64,000 nucleotides of DNA, from the NCBI GenBank assembly GCA_002441265.1, contig DJVQ01000059.1, positions 40,940 through 104,939 of the forward strand, read 5' to 3'. Source of the stretch: Syntrophaceae bacterium UBA6252. Its GTDB lineage: Bacteria > Desulfobacterota > Syntrophia > Syntrophales > UBA6807. The notes beneath the pieces are model-generated. The model made no database searches and was not told where the DNA came from. It worked only from the letters and a program-made list of their open reading frames with translations. Numbering within the stretch: position 1 is the stretch's first letter; every line of letters begins with the position of its first letter. This document shows positions 1,335 through 25,620 of this stretch, piece after piece. The position numbers and the translations under genes were made by a program.

Positions 1335-3503
1335 GTGAAGACGAAAAAAAGCTTTCCCATCCGAATCGTCCTGTACATCGTGCTCATCGTTCTCATCAAC
1401 GTCGCCGGGATGAACCTGTTCTTCCGGACCGACCTCACCGCCAGCGGCGCCTATTCCCTTTCTGATGCGAGCCGCCGGGCCGTTTCCTCCCTGTCGGAAC
1501 CGCTCACCATCAAGGCCTTCTTCAGCAAGGATCTGCCGGCGCCGTACAACGGAACGGCGCGGTACCTGCGGGACCTTCTCGAGGAATACGGGATCTACGG
1601 GAACCGTTACTTCAATTACCAGTTCCTCGAGGTGGCCCCCGAGGATTCCCCCGGAAAGGCCGGGGAAAACGAGGACGTCGCGAGGAACTACGGAATCCAC
1701 CCCATCCAGATCCAGCACATCGAAAAGGACGAGGTGAAGTTCAAGAAAGTGTTCATGGGGATCGTCATCCTCCACGGCAACCTCATCGAGAAGATCCCCT
1801 CCGTCACGTCCAGCGACGGCCTGGAATACCGGATCACCACCGCCATCCTGAAACTGCACGGCAAGATCGGCGCCCTCCTGGGCCTCGATGGAAAGGTGGC
1901 GGTGACGCTCTTCCAGTCTTCTTCCCTCGATGCCGTGGCCCCGTTCATCAACGTGAAGGAACTGCCCCGGCTGCCGGAGCGGATGGCCGAACTCGTGAAG
2001 GACCTGAACGGAAAGAACTACGACAAGCTCGCCTTCGCCGTGGTCGATCCGGAAAAGGGAGAGACGGAGAGGGCGGAGGCTCGGAAATACGGCCTCATGA
2101 GGCTCCGCTGGCCCGCCCTGGAGGAACGCAACCTCGCTGCGGGCGAGGGCGTCATCGGCCTCGTCATGGAATACGGCGGAAAAACGGTGGAGATCCCGGT
2201 CCTGGACGTCCTTCAGATCCCCCTCCTGGGGACCAGCTACCGGCTGGCGGAGATGGACCGGATCCGGGAACAGATCGAGGGGAATCTGGACGGTCTCATC
2301 GGCATCTATGAAAACGTCGGCTACCTCGCCGATCACGGAACCCTGCCCATCTACGAGGTTCCCGGGATGGAAGACAGCGGCGACAGCGCCTCCAGCTTCC
2401 ATTCCCTCCTGTCCAGGAACTATACGCTCAAAGATGTCCGGATGAAGGAAGGGGCGCTGCTCGACAACTTCAACAGCCTCATCATCGCGGGGCCCAGGGA
2501 GAAATTCACCGACTACGAACTGTTCCAGCTGGACCAGCTCCTCATGAAGGGCAAGAACCTGGCCCTTTTCCTGGACGCCTACCGGGAGGAGGAGCCCCCG
2601 GCGAACCAGCCGAACCGGTACAATGCCGGCGGCGTCCTCGCCCCGCTCGATACGGGCCTGGAAAAGCTCGTCGCGCACTACGGCGTATCGGTGGCAAGGG
2701 CCTACGTCCTCGACGAGAGCTGCTTCCGGCAGCGGATGCCCGCCCAGGCCGGGGGAGGGGATCGGGCGCTGTATTTCGTGCCGATCATCAAAAGCGGGAA
2801 CATCCTGCGGGACGCCCCCTTCATGAAGAACATCCGCGGCCTCGCGGTCATGAAGGCCTCACCCCTGGAACTGAAGGAAGACCGGATCCGGGAGGAGGGC
2901 GTCAAGGCGACGGAACTCTTCACCTCGTCCGACCGTTCCTGGACCTTGAAAGACGTGCCGAACCTGAACGCCCTTCTGATGCAGGTTCCGCCCCCGGAGA
3001 AGGAAATGGGGAAATCGCCCCTGGCCGTCCTGCTCGAAGGGCCCTTTTCGAGCTATTTCAAGGGAAAACCGATTCCGGAGCGGCAGGCGGAAGAAAAGGA
3101 AGGCGGTGAGAGCGGCCGTGCCGCCGAAGCCGCGCCGCCGGTGGAGCGGGAGGGAGGCGTGATCGAGCAGGGGAAACCGGGAAAGATCTTCCTCATCGGG
3201 ACGTCGGACATCCTGAGAAACCAGATGGTGGACGAGCAGGGCGGCAGCCCGAACAGCGTCTTTCTCCTGAACGTGATCGACCACCTGAACAACCGCGACG
3301 ACATCGCCGTCATGCGGGGGAAGGCGCAGGAGCTCAATCCTCTCGCGGACACGAGCCCGTGGGCGAAAACGGCGGTGAAGGTCTTCAACATCGCGGGCCT
3401 TCCGGTCCTGGTGGTCCTCTTCGGACTCGTGGTCTGGGCCTTGAGGGTTTCAAGGAAAAAAGCCATCCGGGAAATGTTCGCTCCCGGGGGAGGTACGCCA
3501 TGA
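1335..3503 (+). CDS. GldG-like ABC transporter accessory protein
   Basis: The long track ORF 711..3503 overlaps the permease, so I place the start at in-frame GTG 1335, with AGGAGGG 7 nt upstream. There is an N-terminal TM helix (IRIVLYIVLIVLINVAG) and a C-terminal TM helix (VFNIAGLPVLVVLFGLVVWAL) around a large soluble domain, as in GldG-family proteins. Confidence 0.7.
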   Translation: MKTKKSFPIRIVLYIVLIVLINVAGMNLFFRTDLTASGAYSLSDASRRAVSSLSEPLTIKAFFSKDLPAPYNGTARYLRDLLEEYGIYGNRYFNYQFLEVAPEDSPGKAGENEDVARNYGIHPIQIQHIEKDEVKFKKVFMGIVILHGNLIEKIPSVTSSDGLEYRITTAILKLHGKIGALLGLDGKVAVTLFQSSSLDAVAPFINVKELPRLPERMAELVKDLNGKNYDKLAFAVVDPEKGETERAEARKYGLMRLRWPALEERNLAAGEGVIGLVMEYGGKTVEIPVLDVLQIPLLGTSYRLAEMDRIREQIEGNLDGLIGIYENVGYLADHGTLPIYEVPGMEDSGDSASSFHSLLSRNYTLKDVRMKEGALLDNFNSLIIAGPREKFTDYELFQLDQLLMKGKNLALFLDAYREEEPPANQPNRYNAGGVLAPLDTGLEKLVAHYGVSVARAYVLDESCFRQRMPAQAGGGDRALYFVPIIKSGNILRDAPFMKNIRGLAVMKASPLELKEDRIREEGVKATELFTSSDRSWTLKDVPNLNALLMQVPPPEKEMGKSPLAVLLEGPFSSYFKGKPIPERQAEEKEGGESGRAAEAAPPVEREGGVIEQGKPGKIFLIGTSDILRNQMVDEQGGSPNSVFLLNVIDHLNNRDDIAVMRGKAQELNPLADTSPWAKTAVKVFNIAGLPVLVVLFGLVVWALRVSRKKAIREMFAPGGGTP

Positions 3504-4468
3504 AACGGAGAAGGGAAGTCCTCGTTCTGATCCTTCTCATCGCCGCCCTGGCGCTCTACCTTCTGTTCCGGGACCGGGACGGGACCCGGTACGAACTGCC
3601 AGTCCCTCCGAAGATGGAAACGGGGAAGATCACCGCCCTCGCGATCTCCCGCGGAGGGGAGAAGGGCTTCGAACTGGTGCGGAAGGACGACGGGTGGGTC
3701 CTCCTCCCCGGCGATTATCCCGCCGACTGGCACAAGGTTGAGGTTCTCCTTGCGGAAATCGCGAAGTTCGACCTGACGGCCATGGTATCGGAATCGAAAA
3801 ATTACGAACCCTACGACCTCACCGGGGACAAAAGGATCCGGGTCGCCGTCCGGGAAGGGGACCGGGAGGCGTTCCGGTTCGACCTGGGAAAGGCGGCCTC
3901 CACCTACCGGCACACCTTTGTCCGGGTGGGGGAAGACCCCAGGGTCTATCATGCCCGGGGGAATCTTCGCTCCCAGTTCGACCGGTCCGCCGCCGACCTG
4001 AGGGACAAGGGGGTGTTGTCCTTCAACCGCGACGAGATCACGGAGATCGCTTTCACGGCCGGGGGGAAGACGGTCCGGTGGCATCGGGAGGAGGCCCCCG
4101 CCGGAGAGGGTGCGGCGCCGTCCGGTGAGGCGAAGAAGGAAGGGGAAAAGAAAAAGATCCGCTGGGTGAGCGACACCGGAGCCGACGCGGCCGGGGATGC
4201 GGCGGCCCGTCTGCTGGAGAGCCTTTCCTCCCTGGCGTGCGACGGCTACTTGGAGGGAAGGAAGAAGGAAGAATTCGGGGAATCCCCGTACGCGATCCGG
4301 CTCAGGGGCCGCGAGGAATACGCCCTCTTCCTGTACCCCGGAAGCGGTGAAGGGGAGGAGAGGGTTTCCGCGGTGTCCTCCGGGAGCCCCTATCCCTTTT
4401 TCCTCGAACGCGGCCGGGTGGACAACCTGAAAAAGACCCTGGAAGCCCTGGAGGGCGGAAAACCGTAA
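3500..4468 (+). CDS. DUF4340-like membrane-anchored protein (ABC module accessory)
   Basis: ATG 3500 overlaps the upstream stop (ATGA). An N-terminal TM helix (VLVLILLIAALALYLLF) is present. The family assignment rests mainly on its usual position after gldG-like genes. Confidence 0.5.
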   Translation: MKRRREVLVLILLIAALALYLLFRDRDGTRYELPVPPKMETGKITALAISRGGEKGFELVRKDDGWVLLPGDYPADWHKVEVLLAEIAKFDLTAMVSESKNYEPYDLTGDKRIRVAVREGDREAFRFDLGKAASTYRHTFVRVGEDPRVYHARGNLRSQFDRSAADLRDKGVLSFNRDEITEIAFTAGGKTVRWHREEAPAGEGAAPSGEAKKEGEKKKIRWVSDTGADAAGDAAARLLESLSSLACDGYLEGRKKEEFGESPYAIRLRGREEYALFLYPGSGEGEERVSAVSSGSPYPFFLERGRVDNLKKTLEALEGGKP

Positions 4469-4509
4469 GCCCGGGGCGTGCCCGCCGGGCGGTTCGGGAG
4501 CTCACAAAG

Positions 4510-5310
4510 ATGAAGCCGATTCTCGTTCAGATCTATGAGATCCAGGATCCCCGGGAGGCGGAAGCCCTTCTCGGCCTCGGGGTGGATCACATGGGGTCGG
4601 TTCTTCTCTCGCGGGAAGGCTGGAGGGTGCCGGCCATCAGGGAGGTGACGGCCCTTCTCGCGGCGGAACACGTCAAAAGCTGTCTCATCCCCCTCTTCAA
4701 CGACATGGAGGACCTCTGCCGGGCCCTGGATTACTATGAGCCCCGGATCCTCCATTTCTGCGAAGCCCTGTCCTTTCCCCGCCCCGGAGGTCCCGACGTC
4801 CGGCGGCTGTGGGAACCCCATTCCATCCTCCAGGAGAGGCTGAAAGCGCGTTATCCCGACCTGGAAATCATGCGTTCCATCCCCGTCCCGAGGGGCGGGA
4901 AAACGGATTCCGCCTCGGCGGGAGAGGCCCTCGGGCGGATGGCGGACTGGTTCGCCCCGGCGAGCGATTATTTTCTCACCGACACCCTCCTGGGGAACTG
5001 GGACGCCCCGGCGTTTTCCGGGGAGCCGGTGGCGGGCTACGTGGGGATCACCGGAGAAACCTGCGACTGGAATATCGTTGGGGCCCTCGTCGCGCGAAGC
5101 GCCGTTCCTGTCATCCTGGCGGGGGGGATCTCGCCGGAAAACGTCCGTGAGGGGATCCTGAGGGTGCGCCCGGCCGGCGTGGACAGCTGCACGGGAACGA
5201 ACGCGCGGGACCCCGGCGGCCGTCCCGTCCGGTTCCGGAAGGACCGGGAAAAGGTGCGCAGGCTCGTGGAGGAGGTCCACCGCACCGAGCGTTCCCTTTC
5301 CATTGGCTGA
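4510..5310 (+). CDS. phosphoribosylanthranilate isomerase-like protein (divergent, stand-alone)
   Basis: The C-terminal half matches the PRAI pattern: GITGETCDW...VPVILAGGISPENV...PAGVDSCTG. At 266 aa it is longer than typical TrpF. No trp genes are nearby. Confidence 0.5.
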   Translation: MKPILVQIYEIQDPREAEALLGLGVDHMGSVLLSREGWRVPAIREVTALLAAEHVKSCLIPLFNDMEDLCRALDYYEPRILHFCEALSFPRPGGPDVRRLWEPHSILQERLKARYPDLEIMRSIPVPRGGKTDSASAGEALGRMADWFAPASDYFLTDTLLGNWDAPAFSGEPVAGYVGITGETCDWNIVGALVARSAVPVILAGGISPENVREGILRVRPAGVDSCTGTNARDPGGRPVRFRKDREKVRRLVEEVHRTERSLSIG

Positions 5311-5452
5311 CCCTTGCGGGGATTTCCCCGGACCGCGGCGCCGGCGGCCCCGCTGTTTACGGGGCTGCCAGGCCCGTCACGACGGGCGCAGGAACGGCGT
5401 TCCGGCGGAACCACACCTTGGGGCCGCCGCCGGATCTTTCGTCAGTCGTACG

Positions 5453-6790
5453 TTACCTGCTTGACGTGCGTTTTCTTCTCGTTTTGAACCGGGCCGATCC
5501 GAAAAAGGACTTGCCCGCGGACTGGAAGGGGGATGCGTTCTGAGAGCCGGAGCCCTGTTGCGCCGGCTGCGGTGTGAAGGCTGCGTTCCCCTGGGGGGAG
5601 GATGGACGGCGTCCTTTTTTCACGGACGTTCCGGTCCTTCCGGACCTGATCCTTAGCGAGGGAACGGGAACGGTGTAGTCGAAATCCTCCAGGGTTCTCC
5701 TTTCAATGGTTTCGCCGAGCAGCCTCTCGAGCGTCCAGACGAAGGCCCGGTCCTCGAGGGTCACGAACGTGAAGGCGGTGCCCGTCCTTTCGGCGCGGCC
5801 GGTGCGGCCGATGCGGTGGATGTAAGCGTCGGCGGTGTCGGGCATGTCGTAGTTGATGACGTGCGAGATCCGGGAAACGTCGATGCCCCGGGCGGCGATG
5901 TCGGTGGCTATGAGGACCTGGTACCTGCCGTTGCGGAACCCGTCCAGGGCTTCCTGCCTCCTGTTCTGCGACAGGTCCCCCTGAAGGGAGGCGACAACGA
6001 ACCCGGCCTTTTTCATCCTGCTCGCCACGCGGGTGGCCCGATCCCTGGTCCGGGTAAAGACGAGCACCGATTCGGTCTTCGTCCGTTCCAGAAGTTTCAT
6101 GAGAAGGGCCGTCTTGAGATGGGGCTCGACGGGGTAGATGGCATGGGAAACGGTCGACACCGGGGCGGTCAACCCGACCTGCATGGTGACCGGGTCCTTG
6201 AGGATTTCCCGGGCGAGCTTCTGGATGTCATCGGGCATGGTGGCGGAGAAGAGCAGGGTCTGCCGTTTTGCCGGGATGCCCTTCAGGATCTTCCGGATAT
6301 CGGGGAGGAAGCCCATGTCGAACATGCGGTCCGCCTCGTCCAGGACGAGGACTTCCACGCCCGCCAGGTCGATGGCTTTCTGTCCCATGAGATCGAGGAG
6401 CCGTCCCGGACAGGCCGTGACGATGTCCACGCCATCTTTCATTTTTTTGATCTGGGGCTCCAGTTTCGTGCCCCCGTAGACGGTGGCGCTCCTCAGTTTC
6501 GTTTTTCCGCCGAGAAGGAGGACGGCCTCATGGGTCTGCTCCGCCAGTTCCCGGGTCGGCGCGATGATGAGGGCCCGGATGCGCCTGCGGGGCCCCTCCA
6601 TGAGCCGGTGCAGGATGGGAAGAACGAAAGCGGCCGTCTTTCCCGTTCCCGTCTGGGCAAGTCCCATGAGGTCCTTGCCTTGGAGAATCGAGGGGATGCA
6701 TTGTGACTGGATGGGGGTGGGGTTGGTGTAGCCTGCCTTGAAGATTCCCGATTCGACATCGGGGTGCAACTCAAATGTCTTGAAACTCAT
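5453..6790 (-). CDS. rhlE: DEAD-box ATP-dependent RNA helicase (RhlE-like)
   Basis: It carries the Q-motif/TPIQ, Walker A AQTGTGKTAAF, VLDEADRM (DEAD box), the SAT motif and HRIGRTGR, plus a basic C-terminal tail. Confidence 0.9.
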   Translation of the reverse strand: MSFKTFELHPDVESGIFKAGYTNPTPIQSQCIPSILQGKDLMGLAQTGTGKTAAFVLPILHRLMEGPRRRIRALIIAPTRELAEQTHEAVLLLGGKTKLRSATVYGGTKLEPQIKKMKDGVDIVTACPGRLLDLMGQKAIDLAGVEVLVLDEADRMFDMGFLPDIRKILKGIPAKRQTLLFSATMPDDIQKLAREILKDPVTMQVGLTAPVSTVSHAIYPVEPHLKTALLMKLLERTKTESVLVFTRTRDRATRVASRMKKAGFVVASLQGDLSQNRRQEALDGFRNGRYQVLIATDIAARGIDVSRISHVINYDMPDTADAYIHRIGRTGRAERTGTAFTFVTLEDRAFVWTLERLLGETIERRTLEDFDYTVPVPSLRIRSGRTGTSVKKGRRPSSPQGNAAFTPQPAQQGSGSQNASPFQSAGKSFFGSARFKTRRKRTSSR

Positions 6791-23760: not shown

Positions 23761-24024
23761 CAGGAAATGAACTTTTGGGGTGGGGCGCCGCCTGAATGAA
23801 CCAGCCGCCGCCCCAGTGTCAAAAGAGACCTTGAGGAATGTGGTCCTTTCTTTTTTGGGAACTCTTGGAAATGCTTGTCAGGAAACACCGTATTGAACTA
23901 TCCGGACCGGGGCAGAAGCAATGCATGGGGGTGACGAACGACATGATGAGAATGTAACGACGTAGTCGATATTTATATCGTAAACGAGTTCATTTTCTTC
24001 CGAAAAGTGGTATTATATAAAATT

Positions 24025-24285
24025 CTACTTTTCTTCTTTCTCTGATTTTTCCATCTTAGGCTGATACTTTAATGAGTTGCACATAACTTCGATCATTTTC
24101 AGAAGATTGTTTTTAGGAACAATTATTCTTGCCTGTTCAACCAGGCCCTCGGGAGCCTGTGTAAGAAATCTCAGAAACATTATATCATCGCTTCTGAAAT
24201 TAAACTGTAAGCTGTCTGCGTAAATAGTTGATAAATTGTTATTATAAATGAGTCCCTTTGCTTCTTTCTTCTTTTCAGCCATCAT
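24025..24285 (-). CDS. DUF3467-like small protein, third gene of the MqsR/MqsA-like operon
   Basis: 86 aa, with a GAGGA SD 5 nt before the ATG and starting 19 nt after the antitoxin stop. The core YADSLQFNFRSDDIMFLRF...ARIIVPKNNLLKMIEVMCNSLKY resembles the DUF3467 pattern as I recall it. Confidence 0.5.
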   Translation of the reverse strand: MMAEKKKEAKGLIYNNNLSTIYADSLQFNFRSDDIMFLRFLTQAPEGLVEQARIIVPKNNLLKMIEVMCNSLKYQPKMEKSEKEEK

Positions 24286-24304
24286 TTGGTCCTCGGATCG
24301 TTTT

Positions 24305-24916
24305 TCAGGAGATGCCTGTTTTCTTTATCAATACAGGGGTATTTCTTGGTCCCTGCATTGCGATGAGTACTTCGTGCCACTCTTTCGGTTCTGTCACCAG
24401 TTTTACAGGGGGCATCCTTTCGAATTCGGCTCCAGCCATAGTCAATGAGGCTTGCGGCAATTTCTTCGCTCGTATTACTTTAATCTCGGCATATATCTCT
24501 TTCTTATCCTGTCTATCGGTCAATGACAAAGGAAACCTTCCGTCTCCGGTTTCCTTGTACTTCAAAACGGATTCCTTTAAGTAAAAGTCACTGCCGTCAA
24601 TTTTAGTTTTAAAAATGAAACCCCTTCTGATTCTTCTGTTCTTGTGTAATGCCTGTCGGCTTATTCCTAGTAATTCCAATGTTTTGGATGCTGATATGAA
24701 ATCCTTCAGCGGGCGTTCTTTTATAAGTTTGTCTTCGATTTGTTCTCTTATTATTTCAATCACTTTCAGAGTATCTACAGGATACAATACATCGACGCAT
24801 TTATCACAGACATAATAATCAACATCAGGAACTTTGTATTTTCCTATGATCTCATCATTCAAATGAATGGTTCCATGTTTCTTGTTGTATCGTCCGTCGC
24901 AATTATAGCAGATCAT
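24305..24916 (-). CDS. MqsA-like antitoxin: YgiT-type zinc ribbon + HTH + long C-terminal extension
   Basis: It has C3-x2-C6 and C37-x2-C40 (a zinc ribbon as in MqsA/YgiT) and an HTH-like segment ASKTLELLGISRQALHKNRR. It starts 7 nt after the toxin stop. At 203 aa it is longer than the roughly 130 aa of E. coli MqsA. Confidence 0.65.
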   Translation of the reverse strand: MICYNCDGRYNKKHGTIHLNDEIIGKYKVPDVDYYVCDKCVDVLYPVDTLKVIEIIREQIEDKLIKERPLKDFISASKTLELLGISRQALHKNRRIRRGFIFKTKIDGSDFYLKESVLKYKETGDGRFPLSLTDRQDKKEIYAEIKVIRAKKLPQASLTMAGAEFERMPPVKLVTEPKEWHEVLIAMQGPRNTPVLIKKTGIS

Positions 24917-24923
24917 ATTATAC

Positions 24924-25247
24924 CTATAACTTTTTTAAGCTGGTTATTATCAGTTTGCCGGAGTCATGAACATAAAATTTCGTATAAATATTTTCTCCCT
25001 CAAAATTTCTGATTTTGTAAACATCCATTAATTTTCTGTTGTTTTTATTTTCTATTGTTATATCAAAGCTGAAGGGGCTCAATCTGAGGTAAACTTTCTC
25101 TATATCCTCCACTTTCCAACGAAAGTCTTTCCATGCCGATTGATGGACGGGCCAAGGAACAACATACTCCTTTCTTCTAATTTTATCTTTAATGTCCTTT
25201 AATCCGTAGTACGGCTTTGGCGTGTTATTTTTCTCGCTTTTTCTCAT
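24924..25247 (-). CDS. MqsR-like type II toxin (mRNA interferase family)
   Basis: 107 aa. YGLKDIKDKIRRKEY and the C-terminal MDVYKIRNFEGENIYTKFYVHDSGKLIITSLKKL align by eye with E. coli MqsR (..QDVYRPRLVTGQVYLKITVIHDVLIVSFKEK). The toxin-first gene order matches mqsRA. Confidence 0.7.
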   Translation of the reverse strand: MRKSEKNNTPKPYYGLKDIKDKIRRKEYVVPWPVHQSAWKDFRWKVEDIEKVYLRLSPFSFDITIENKNNRKLMDVYKIRNFEGENIYTKFYVHDSGKLIITSLKKL

Positions 25248-25260
25248 CTTGTAGCATCAG

Positions 25261-25278
25261 GGTTGACGGTTGTCAACC
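25261..25278. promoter_or_regulatory. palindrome GGTTGAC-GGTT-GTCAACC directly upstream of the toxin gene (candidate operator)
   Basis: It has perfect 7-bp arms, lies 14 nt upstream of ATG 25247, and contains a TTGACA hexamer on the coding (minus) strand. Confidence 0.45.
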
Positions 25279-25425
25279 ATAAAGGCAATGAATGTGTGAG
25301 GGTGTTTATTGAGTTGAGCCCTTCATAGAGGGATAAATCATCCTTTAAAAGATTCTCATATGTCAAGAAATAAGTCGAAAATTGTGATGAATCGGCATTT
25401 TTAGGGATGGAGGGGGCAGATAAGG

Positions 25426-25452
25426 AAAAGGCCCCGCCGTCGCAGCGGAGCC
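25426..25452 (-). terminator. rho-independent terminator after tRNA-Cys
   Basis: The minus strand reads GGCTCCGC-(7 nt)-GCGGGGCC (8 bp including one G.U) followed by TTTTCC. It starts 11 nt after the tRNA 3' end. Confidence 0.6.
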
Positions 25453-25462
25453 TCGTTTTTCC

Positions 25463-25538
25463 TGGAGGCGGCAACCGGACTCGAACCGGTGAATAACGGT
25501 TTTGCAGACCGCTGCCTTAGCCACTTGGCTATGCCGCC
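25463..25538 (-). tRNA. tRNA-Cys (GCA)
   Basis: A manual cloverleaf fold gives acceptor GGCGGCA/TGCCGCC, anticodon loop CTGCAAA, T-arm ACCGG-TTCGAGT-CCGGT and an encoded CCA. Confidence 0.9.
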
Positions 25539-25545
25539 ATAAAAA

Positions 25546-25620
25546 TGGAGCGGGCGAACGGATTTGAACCGTCGACCTTCACCTTGGCAAGGTGACACTC
25601 TACCGCTGAGTTACGCCCGC
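25546..25620 (-). tRNA. tRNA-Gly (GCC)
   Basis: A manual cloverleaf fold gives acceptor GCGGGCG/CGCCCGC, anticodon loop TTGCCAA, T-loop TTCAAAT and an encoded CCA. Confidence 0.9.

Follow-up and report, generated by a model that had tools for sequence, protein, structure and literature searches.

Among bacterial toxin-antitoxin (TA) systems, two described groups come closest to the locus reported here, namely the MqsR/MqsA pair of E. coli (YgiU/YgiT; PDB 3gn5, 3ga8, and 3hi2) and the tripartite toxin-antitoxin-chaperone (TAC) systems. In the former the toxin gene comes first, and the antitoxin MqsA joins an N-terminal zinc ribbon, through a helical linker, to a C-terminal XRE-type helix-turn-helix (HTH) domain; its operator is the palindrome ACCT-N3-AGGT (PMC13409141). 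In the latter, for which M. tuberculosis HigBA1-SecB(TA), V. cholerae RC385 and E. coli MqsRAC, E. coli HigBAC, and CmdTAC were compared, a disordered C-terminal extension of the antitoxin, the chaperone addiction (ChAD) element, makes the protein prone to aggregation and proteolysis when no dedicated SecB-like chaperone is bound to it; among the known chassis of these systems is MqsRA, and their ChAD elements are variable, modular, and transferable (PMC5105189). The ChAD of E. coli HigBAC has four aromatic residues at regular intervals that fit into equivalent pockets on tetrameric SecB, and a phage protein acts as a competitor for this chaperone (bioRxiv 10.1101/2024.02.24.581848). The TAC papers found in our literature search deal exclusively with SecB-like chaperones. 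The present analysis concerns a protein of 203 residues, and the genes on either side of it, encoded in a stretch of 64,000 nucleotides of contig DJVQ01000059.1 from Syntrophaceae bacterium UBA6252 (hereafter the window). An earlier note, made from the letters of the window alone, had described this protein as an antitoxin of unusual architecture, a description that stands as far as the DNA-binding domain is concerned, this being of the HTH_17 type and not XRE; the C-terminal extension is not unprecedented, because such extensions of MqsA-type antitoxins are already known from the MqsRAC/TAC systems (PMC5105189). The locus is best described by the combination of its parts, as a module of MqsRA/TAC type with a swapped DNA-binding domain, a different candidate operator, and a third component which is not SecB.

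The open reading frame (ORF; see Table 1 for the coordinates of all features) starts with ATG, contains no internal stop, and is uninterrupted. Since it has 193 homologues at E <= 1e-3, nearly all of about 180 residues and annotated as hypothetical, and since the identical protein is found on 17 public metagenome contigs with the same calls of genes of 107, 203, and 86 residues, it is a real gene; the possibility, raised at first, that an internal start or stop had been overlooked and two genes read as one is ruled out by the uninterrupted frame, the full-length homologues, and the agreement of independent gene calls. The comparison of its length with that of E. coli MqsA, put at about 130 residues, holds (131-132 residues in PDB 3gn5), and the peptides that had been quoted are present in the translation (ASKTLELLGISRQALHKNRRIRRGFIF, residues 76-102; KTKIDGSDFYLKES, residues 103-116; and PVLIKKTGIS at the C-terminus).

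This gene is the middle one of a three-gene operon on the minus strand, which opens with the gene of a 107-residue toxin and closes with that of an 86-residue protein, the first spacer measuring 7 nt and the second 19 nt. The distribution of this arrangement was followed by scans of GTDB genomes and JGI metagenomes, which yielded 102 loci, neighbours being called with profile HMMs on six-frame ORFs and loci with enough flanking sequence being taken as evaluable; the IMG/VR viral contigs scanned contained no relatives. Of 78 non-redundant antitoxins, 72 have an MqsR-family gene directly upstream, and the 86-residue family is found directly downstream in 62 of the 72 evaluable non-redundant loci, the hosts being uncultured Desulfobacterota, Dehalococcoidia, Kiritimatiellia, Lentisphaerae, and Eisenbacteria. 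Toxin, antitoxin, and third gene are a conserved three-gene module and not a chance neighbourhood, and their order is the same as in TAC systems. As to the first gene, the family of its product clearly belongs, by sequence and profile comparison, to the MqsR toxins: the window protein matches Pfam MqsR_toxin (PF15723) with an E-value of 2.7e-5 and 24.9 bits, just below the cutoff of 26.2, 17 of 17 orthologues from related loci match the same model (best 2.5e-17), and the family profile matches E. coli MqsR (PDB 3hi2_B) at 2.2e-10.

The 203-residue protein consists of two parts of very different character. In the family alignments conservation spans residues 1-130 and is followed by divergence; in the AlphaFold2 (AF2) model, built on 78 family members, the predicted local distance difference test (pLDDT) score is at least 90 for residues 1-130 and 50-66 for residues 131-203. 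The model contains two beta-hairpins (residues 9-37), a helix (47-66), the two helices of the HTH (76-83 and 87-97), a beta-hairpin wing (103-113), and a final helix (114-123); conserved in the family are C3, C6, C37, and C40, all invariant or nearly so, P69, the segment ISRQALHKxRRIRRGFI, Y112, S116, and TGDGRFPL. Conserved cysteines and a confidently modelled helix bear out the zinc ribbon and helical linker that had been read from the sequence. The closest match of the model in a Foldseek search of the PDB is E. coli MqsA (3gn5, probability 0.99), and the N-terminal part, a zinc domain with two CxxC pairs, has the fold of the MqsA N-terminal domain (3ga8 and 3hi2_A; TM-score 0.58-0.63, rmsd 2.5 A over 65 residues, probability 0.99-1.00); cysteines at positions 3, 6, 37, and 40, a helical linker, and a DNA-binding domain at the C-terminal side are features shared with E. 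coli MqsA. At the level of sequence models no significant match to the MqsA family was obtained, and in this the window protein, which has no Pfam MqsA_antitoxin (PF15731) or NCBIfam match, differs from its E. coli counterpart: PF15731 matches six of 78 relatives, weakly (best E 0.024), searches with the 203-residue protein against Pfam and NCBIfam (E <= 1, bar one irrelevant match), PADLOC, and PDB sequences gave nothing useful, and the family profile found no match among PDB sequences.

The DNA-binding domain is a winged HTH of the HTH_17/excisionase type where E. coli MqsA has an XRE domain. Pfam HTH_17 (PF12728) matches 52 of 78 family members (best 4.9e-7), residues 73-123 of the window protein match the excisionase family phrog_4691 of PHROG (E 5e-4), and the structural matches of the C-terminal half are the excisionase Xis of mycobacteriophage Pukovnik (4j2n), BldC (6amk), TraN (4p0y), and GlnR/TnrA, not XRE proteins, in agreement with the excisionase/MerR-like character first assigned to it. 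With these domains it has in common the HTH followed by a beta-hairpin wing (residues ~72-123); it differs from them in being fused behind an MqsA-type zinc ribbon, in being followed by TGDGRFPL and a predicted-disordered tail, and in belonging to a TA operon and not to recombination or development. The wing, the helix 114-123, and the near-invariant TGDGRFPL (residues 103-130) are conserved and confidently folded within the same domain; what had been taken for a tail of about 90 residues after the HTH is really made of these 28 residues of winged helix and of a low-confidence tail of 73. With the MqsR-family gene 7 nt upstream, and E. coli MqsA as the best structural match, the 203-residue protein is an MqsA-like antitoxin with a non-XRE DNA-binding domain, as the earlier note had in essence proposed; an HTH_17 variant of MqsA was not found in the literature searched.

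Table 1. Features of the three-gene operon and of its promoter region (positions in the window)
Feature	Positions	Strand	Basis or remark
Toxin gene, MqsR family, 107 residues, first in operon	24924..25247	-	Pfam MqsR_toxin; family profile against PDB
Antitoxin gene, MqsA-like, 203 residues	24305..24916	-	Stop codon 24305-24307; homologues, AF2 model, Foldseek
Four-cysteine zinc ribbon, residues 1-45 (C3, C6, C37, C40), presumed toxin-binding domain	24782..24916	-	AF2 pLDDT 95-98
Long linker helix, residues 46-68	24713..24781	-	AF2 helix 47-66, pLDDT >= 94
Winged HTH (HTH_17/excisionase type), residues 69-130, with ISRQALHKxRRIRRGFI recognition region, beta-hairpin wing, and TGDGRFPL	24527..24712	-	HTH_17, PHROG, Foldseek, conservation
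Variable, predicted-disordered C-terminal tail, residues 131-203 (73 residues), aromatic anchors Y142, F165, W180; proposed docking element for the third protein	24308..24526	-	pLDDT 50-66; variable in alignments
Third gene, 86 residues, small beta3-alpha protein of unnamed family, proposed tail-binding partner	24025..24285	-	Synteny, AF2 model
GAGGA, Shine-Dalgarno-like, within the spacer of 19 nt and 4 nt ahead of the third-gene ATG	24290..24294	-	Read from sequence
Perfect palindrome GGTTGAC-AACC-GTCAACC, candidate operator for the antitoxin HTH	25261..25278		Ends 13 nt upstream of toxin ATG
Promoter-like: -35 TTGACA (in left half-site), 17-nt spacer, TG-n-TACAAG (extended -10-like)	25248..25276	-	Family consensus

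The swapped domain is accompanied by a different candidate operator. Upstream of the toxin gene the exact motif GTTGAC-N4-GTCAAC is present in 65 of 71 non-redundant loci, and with one mismatch in four more; in the 64-kb window the motif, with one mismatch allowed, has a single site (GGTTGACAACCGTCAACC). The family consensus reads gGTTGACAnnTGTCAACc and continues with TGnTAnnnT at a distance of 17 nt from TTGACA, so that the left half-site coincides with the -35 element of an extended -10 promoter; from centre to centre the half-sites are separated by 10 bp, a distance that fits a dimer on one face of the DNA. The palindrome is likely, to judge from its conservation, to be the operator bound by the antitoxin HTH. 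A palindromic operator at the promoter of its own operon would be a further likeness to E. coli MqsRA, although the palindrome conserved at these promoters is neither the E. coli motif ACCT-N3-AGGT (PMC13409141) nor another form of the ACCT-N(2-4)-AGGT palindrome expected of the MqsA family. A second promoter-like site is found at 25337-25366. Mechanical ORF calling extends many of the toxin ORFs from a TTG inside TTGACA, producing spurious N-termini of the form 'MTxVN...'.

Beyond residue 130 the tails cannot be reliably aligned across clades. No motif had at first been recognised in that of the window protein; conserved, periodically spaced aromatic residues are nevertheless found when positions are counted from the end of GDGRFxL. 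In 66 non-redundant antitoxins with the 86-residue family downstream, the tails have a median length of 52 residues and 8.7% Tyr, and an aromatic residue stands at +11 in 43 of them, at +24 in 32, at +37 in 24, at +48 in 22, at +50 in 30, and at the third residue from the C-terminus in 42; the pattern in most relatives is one of four aromatic anchors about 13 residues apart, those of the window tail being Y142 (+12), F165 (+35), and W180 (+50). A variable C-terminal extension, predicted from pLDDT to be disordered and carrying spaced aromatics, is a property of TAC antitoxins as well, in which the spacing is of about 30 residues instead of 13.

The tail varies together with the gene downstream, as would be expected of the partner-binding role first suggested for it; this co-variation was found, and the binding itself, like the regulated degradation suggested as its alternative, is a matter of inference. 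Tails with an aromatic residue at +9 to +12 and another among the last five residues occur 51 times with the third gene and never without it (Fisher p = 6.6e-7, uncorrected for phylogeny), and homologues with short tails of 9-29 residues (L023, L028, L091, and P0023) have no third gene. Four loci (L075 and L100-102) have long tails of a different appearance and a different small overlapping ORF downstream; the ORFs of L075 (3123-3389) and L101 (3090-3395) match each other at E 4e-9, and hhalign gives 0.09% for their relation to the third family of the window. Members of this second downstream family have 88-101 residues and the motifs 'HEGIW/Y...EF...GLQR', and at L073 (3177-3605) yet another downstream gene, of 142 residues, is present; the alternative third genes of L075, L101, and L073 have no Pfam match, and they could represent further classes of partner. 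Taken together, tail and downstream gene behave as an exchangeable pair on the C-terminal end of the antitoxin, in the way in which extension and partner are apparently exchanged as a module between lineages in TAC systems.

The third protein itself belongs to a family of 474 clusters at 50% identity (E <= 1e-3), almost all of them stand-alone proteins of 80-100 residues. In its AF2 model (pLDDT 83) three antiparallel strands (residues 25-30, 35-44, and 47-57) form a sheet packed on a helix (58-72), and residues R31, D33, E50, Q51, and R53 are invariant; the protein differs from the SecB homologue of about 150 residues which is the third component of TAC systems; SecB chains in the PDB have 153-169 residues. 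Homology to SecB was considered and rejected, since a comparison by hhalign of the family profile with E. coli SecB (the sequence of which was verified against PDB 5jtl) gives a probability of 0.13% and no SecB is found among the top 50 Foldseek matches in the PDB. Searches with the single sequence and with alignments of 19 and 79 members gave no match in Pfam, NCBIfam, or PADLOC and nothing significant among PDB sequences (best E 0.02, a designed protein), and the family was not found in the literature searched. Database entries for the antitoxin and the third-gene families are all labelled hypothetical.

On these grounds we assign a probability of about 0.5 to the reading that the operon is a TAC-like tripartite module of the MqsR type with a non-SecB partner docked on the antitoxin tail; because the partner is not SecB-like, it would be a TAC-like module with a different third component. 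In the mechanism that we propose, the N-terminal zinc ribbon would sequester the MqsR-type RNase toxin, a step to which homology to the MqsR-binding domain of E. coli MqsA (3hi2) lends high confidence, and the HTH_17 domain would bind, as a dimer, to GGTTGAC-N4-GTCAACC, overlapping the -35-like TTGACA, and repress the operon, for which the conservation of domain and palindrome makes a good case. The aromatic-anchored tail would dock onto the 86-residue protein, probably an oligomer with equivalent pockets; analogy and co-variation suggest this with moderate confidence. By analogy with ChAD and SecB, an antitoxin with its partner bound would stay soluble and be shielded from proteases, and loss or titration of the partner would free the toxin. 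That the third protein is specifically a stabilising chaperone is less probable than its binding to the tail, and 'chaperone' is used here by analogy only, because the protein shows no detectable likeness to SecB or to other known chaperones. A bolder proposal, which we put forward tentatively and consider somewhat less probable than the module as such, is that the 86-residue protein founds a class of TA partners distinct from SecB (a 'mini-chaperone' or sensor subunit), reading an aromatic code with a period of about 13 residues in disordered tails, and that tail and partner are exchanged together as a cassette; the same antitoxin chassis is found with two or more unrelated partner families and with a fused version.

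Several observations weigh against a tail-docked, chaperone-like partner. The third protein is without detectable similarity to SecB or to any known chaperone, and its family is not strictly tied to this antitoxin, because distant members (P0333 and P0340, at L112 and L113) occur outside an MqsR cassette, one of them after several tiny ORFs and another between a C-terminal fragment of MmeI and a gene with a NYN domain. About 14% of the evaluable loci have no third gene, some of them in spite of a long tail (L057 and L093), and the statistics of the association between tail and third gene ignore shared ancestry. The window tail is an atypical member, because it has no aromatic residue at +24 and runs 23 residues past the last anchor. 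At the promoter, the -10-like hexamer abuts the toxin ATG in the window, and abuts or overlaps the start codon in several other loci, which implies an mRNA without a leader or with a very short one, or else a different promoter. The toxicity of the window toxin is uncertain, because the Lys that most relatives align with K56 of E. coli MqsR is replaced by Ile in the clade of the window, the equivalents of Y81 and K96 being kept; these three residues of the E. coli enzyme we take to be catalytic, and the activity of the window toxin may be reduced or may depend on other catalytic residues.

The last of these observations is a fusion, and it prompts what may be regarded as the main rival. The 229-residue protein P0305 (L108, 2501-3190; also L109 and L110) combines an MqsA-like zinc ribbon and an XRE-like HTH with a third-protein domain at its C-terminus (residues 162-225), and it is accepted as genuine because it recurs in three samples, as a cluster of three members. 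It has neither the aromatic-anchor tail nor an adjacent toxin, and so fits a recruited subunit better than a chaperone for an aggregation-prone tail; the third domain, sitting on an MqsA-like regulator, might have an activity of its own. The tail would then serve to recruit the third protein as a functional subunit, be it a sensor (of a phage protein, for example), a subunit that binds nucleic acid or acts as a co-repressor, or an oligomerisation module which alters operator binding or toxin release. The best folds in a Foldseek search of the PDB, weak as they are, include beta-sheet-plus-helix nucleic-acid binders (Pur-alpha and PC4/Sub1, beside AMPK-beta-like sheets), the protein is lysine-rich at both termini, the family has a weak match to phrog_7919, a family of phage proteins of unknown function (E 8.6e-5), a BFVD search returned uncharacterised phage proteins alone, at non-significant E-values, and in known TACs the chaperone doubles as a phage sensor. 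These fold matches, however, are not significant (best E 0.1, TM-score at most 0.43), no DNA- or RNA-binding motif was identified in the third protein, and periodic aromatics in a disordered tail are a described hallmark of chaperone-addiction elements; a recruited subunit of this kind is, on the whole, rather unlikely, if better placed than the other alternatives. The P0305 gene is an orphan, which follows a 1.3-kb AT-rich non-coding stretch and lies near tRNA-Val, tRNA-Asp, and a lon gene. Another apparent fusion of antitoxin and third protein, a 271-residue ORF of L072, was set aside: immediately ahead of the junction its tail departs from the one in the closely related L005, which points to a probable frameshift in the assembly.

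In many type II antitoxins the disordered C-terminal region binds the toxin and serves as a target for proteases. The tail might accordingly act independently of the third gene, as a Lon/ClpXP degron or as a segment wrapping the toxin, with the 86-residue protein acting elsewhere, for example directly on the toxin, which it might modulate or counter as a second antitoxin; that long tails are kept without the third gene at L057 and L093 would agree with this. MqsA, on the other hand, binds MqsR through its N-terminal zinc domain (PDB 3hi2), which is conserved here, the aromatic-anchor pattern is confined to loci with the third gene, different types of tail go with different types of downstream gene, and the P0305 fusion joins the third domain to the C-terminus of an MqsA-like protein, all of which makes an independent tail improbable. 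Still less can be said for a non-functional tail, a drifting extension or an over-long ORF with an unrelated passenger gene behind it: low sequence conservation, a low-confidence structure, and the extra 23 residues of the window tail would be in its favour, but the median tail keeps its length of about 52 residues and its aromatic positions across several phyla, the synteny of three genes holds in 62 of 72 loci, and the identical protein is present on 17 contigs, so that we regard this alternative as very improbable. It is hardly credible that the protein is not an antitoxin but an excisionase-like, recombination-directionality regulator of a small mobile islet beside tRNA-Cys, as the type of its HTH and the low GC content and position of the cassette could suggest, given its pairing with an MqsR-family toxin, its MqsA-type zinc domain, the location of the palindrome at the operon's own promoter region, and the lack of an integrase, an att-like repeat of the tRNA 3' end, or a viral-contig match.

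With regard to its surroundings, the cassette (window positions 23900-25350) forms an islet of 1.4 kb with 30-44% GC, as compared with about 60% for the genome, directly downstream of a pair of genes for tRNA-Cys (25463-25538) and tRNA-Gly (25546-25620) and of pgsA; between the tRNAs and the cassette lies a terminator-like hairpin (25428-25454), and an Rfam search found the two tRNAs and nothing else. Neither an integrase nor an att-like direct repeat of the tRNA 3' end was found in the islet; with no relatives in IMG/VR either, an origin from a phage or an integrative element is unsupported. A comparable setting is seen in L002, from a Deltaproteobacteria metagenome-assembled genome of Salar de Ascotan, where (3100-5800) a related antitoxin and third gene likewise have a tRNA-Cys-like sequence and pgsA beside them, but lie in the opposite orientation and lack the upstream MqsR toxin; the setting suggests a shared insertion hot spot. 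Upstream of the L002 genes there are a pair of small ORFs (87 residues, and an 88-residue zinc-ribbon protein with two CxxC), which look by eye like a second TA pair, together with a fragment which, again by eye, resembles the C-terminal domain of Lon protease. In Kiritimatiellia (L080, L011, and L082, at about 3000-5300), cassettes with a 38-residue tail and no third gene adjoin an apparent repeat array (the peptide FRAIIGAAPLK recurs in the translation, and CRISPR-like repeats are suggested) and a gene of 517 residues on the opposite strand, and may lie in a defence-island context. In the toxins of the window and its close relatives (the L024 clade), residues ~58-64 read FSFDIT where most of the family has KHFYKS, and the nearly invariant His of YTHFY is Lys.

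As for what these results mean for the family, the domain swap documented here within the MqsA family, in which an HTH_17 winged helix stands in place of the XRE HTH, is useful for annotation, as is the highly conserved candidate operator that goes with it. The third family is widespread in uncultured anaerobes, with at least 474 clusters at 50% identity. As tripartite TAC modules are defined at present, their third component is SecB-like, the chaperone doubling as a sensor for anti-phage abortive infection; if the reading of a non-SecB partner docked on the antitoxin tail is true, addiction to a partner would be a general and convergent way to obtain conditionally unstable antitoxins, evolved more than once and with unrelated folds, and several hundred clusters of 'hypothetical' genes would join the TA and defence catalogue. 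It would also provide a compact and testable system, made of genes of 107, 203, and 86 codons, an operator of 16-18 bp, and three or four anchor residues.

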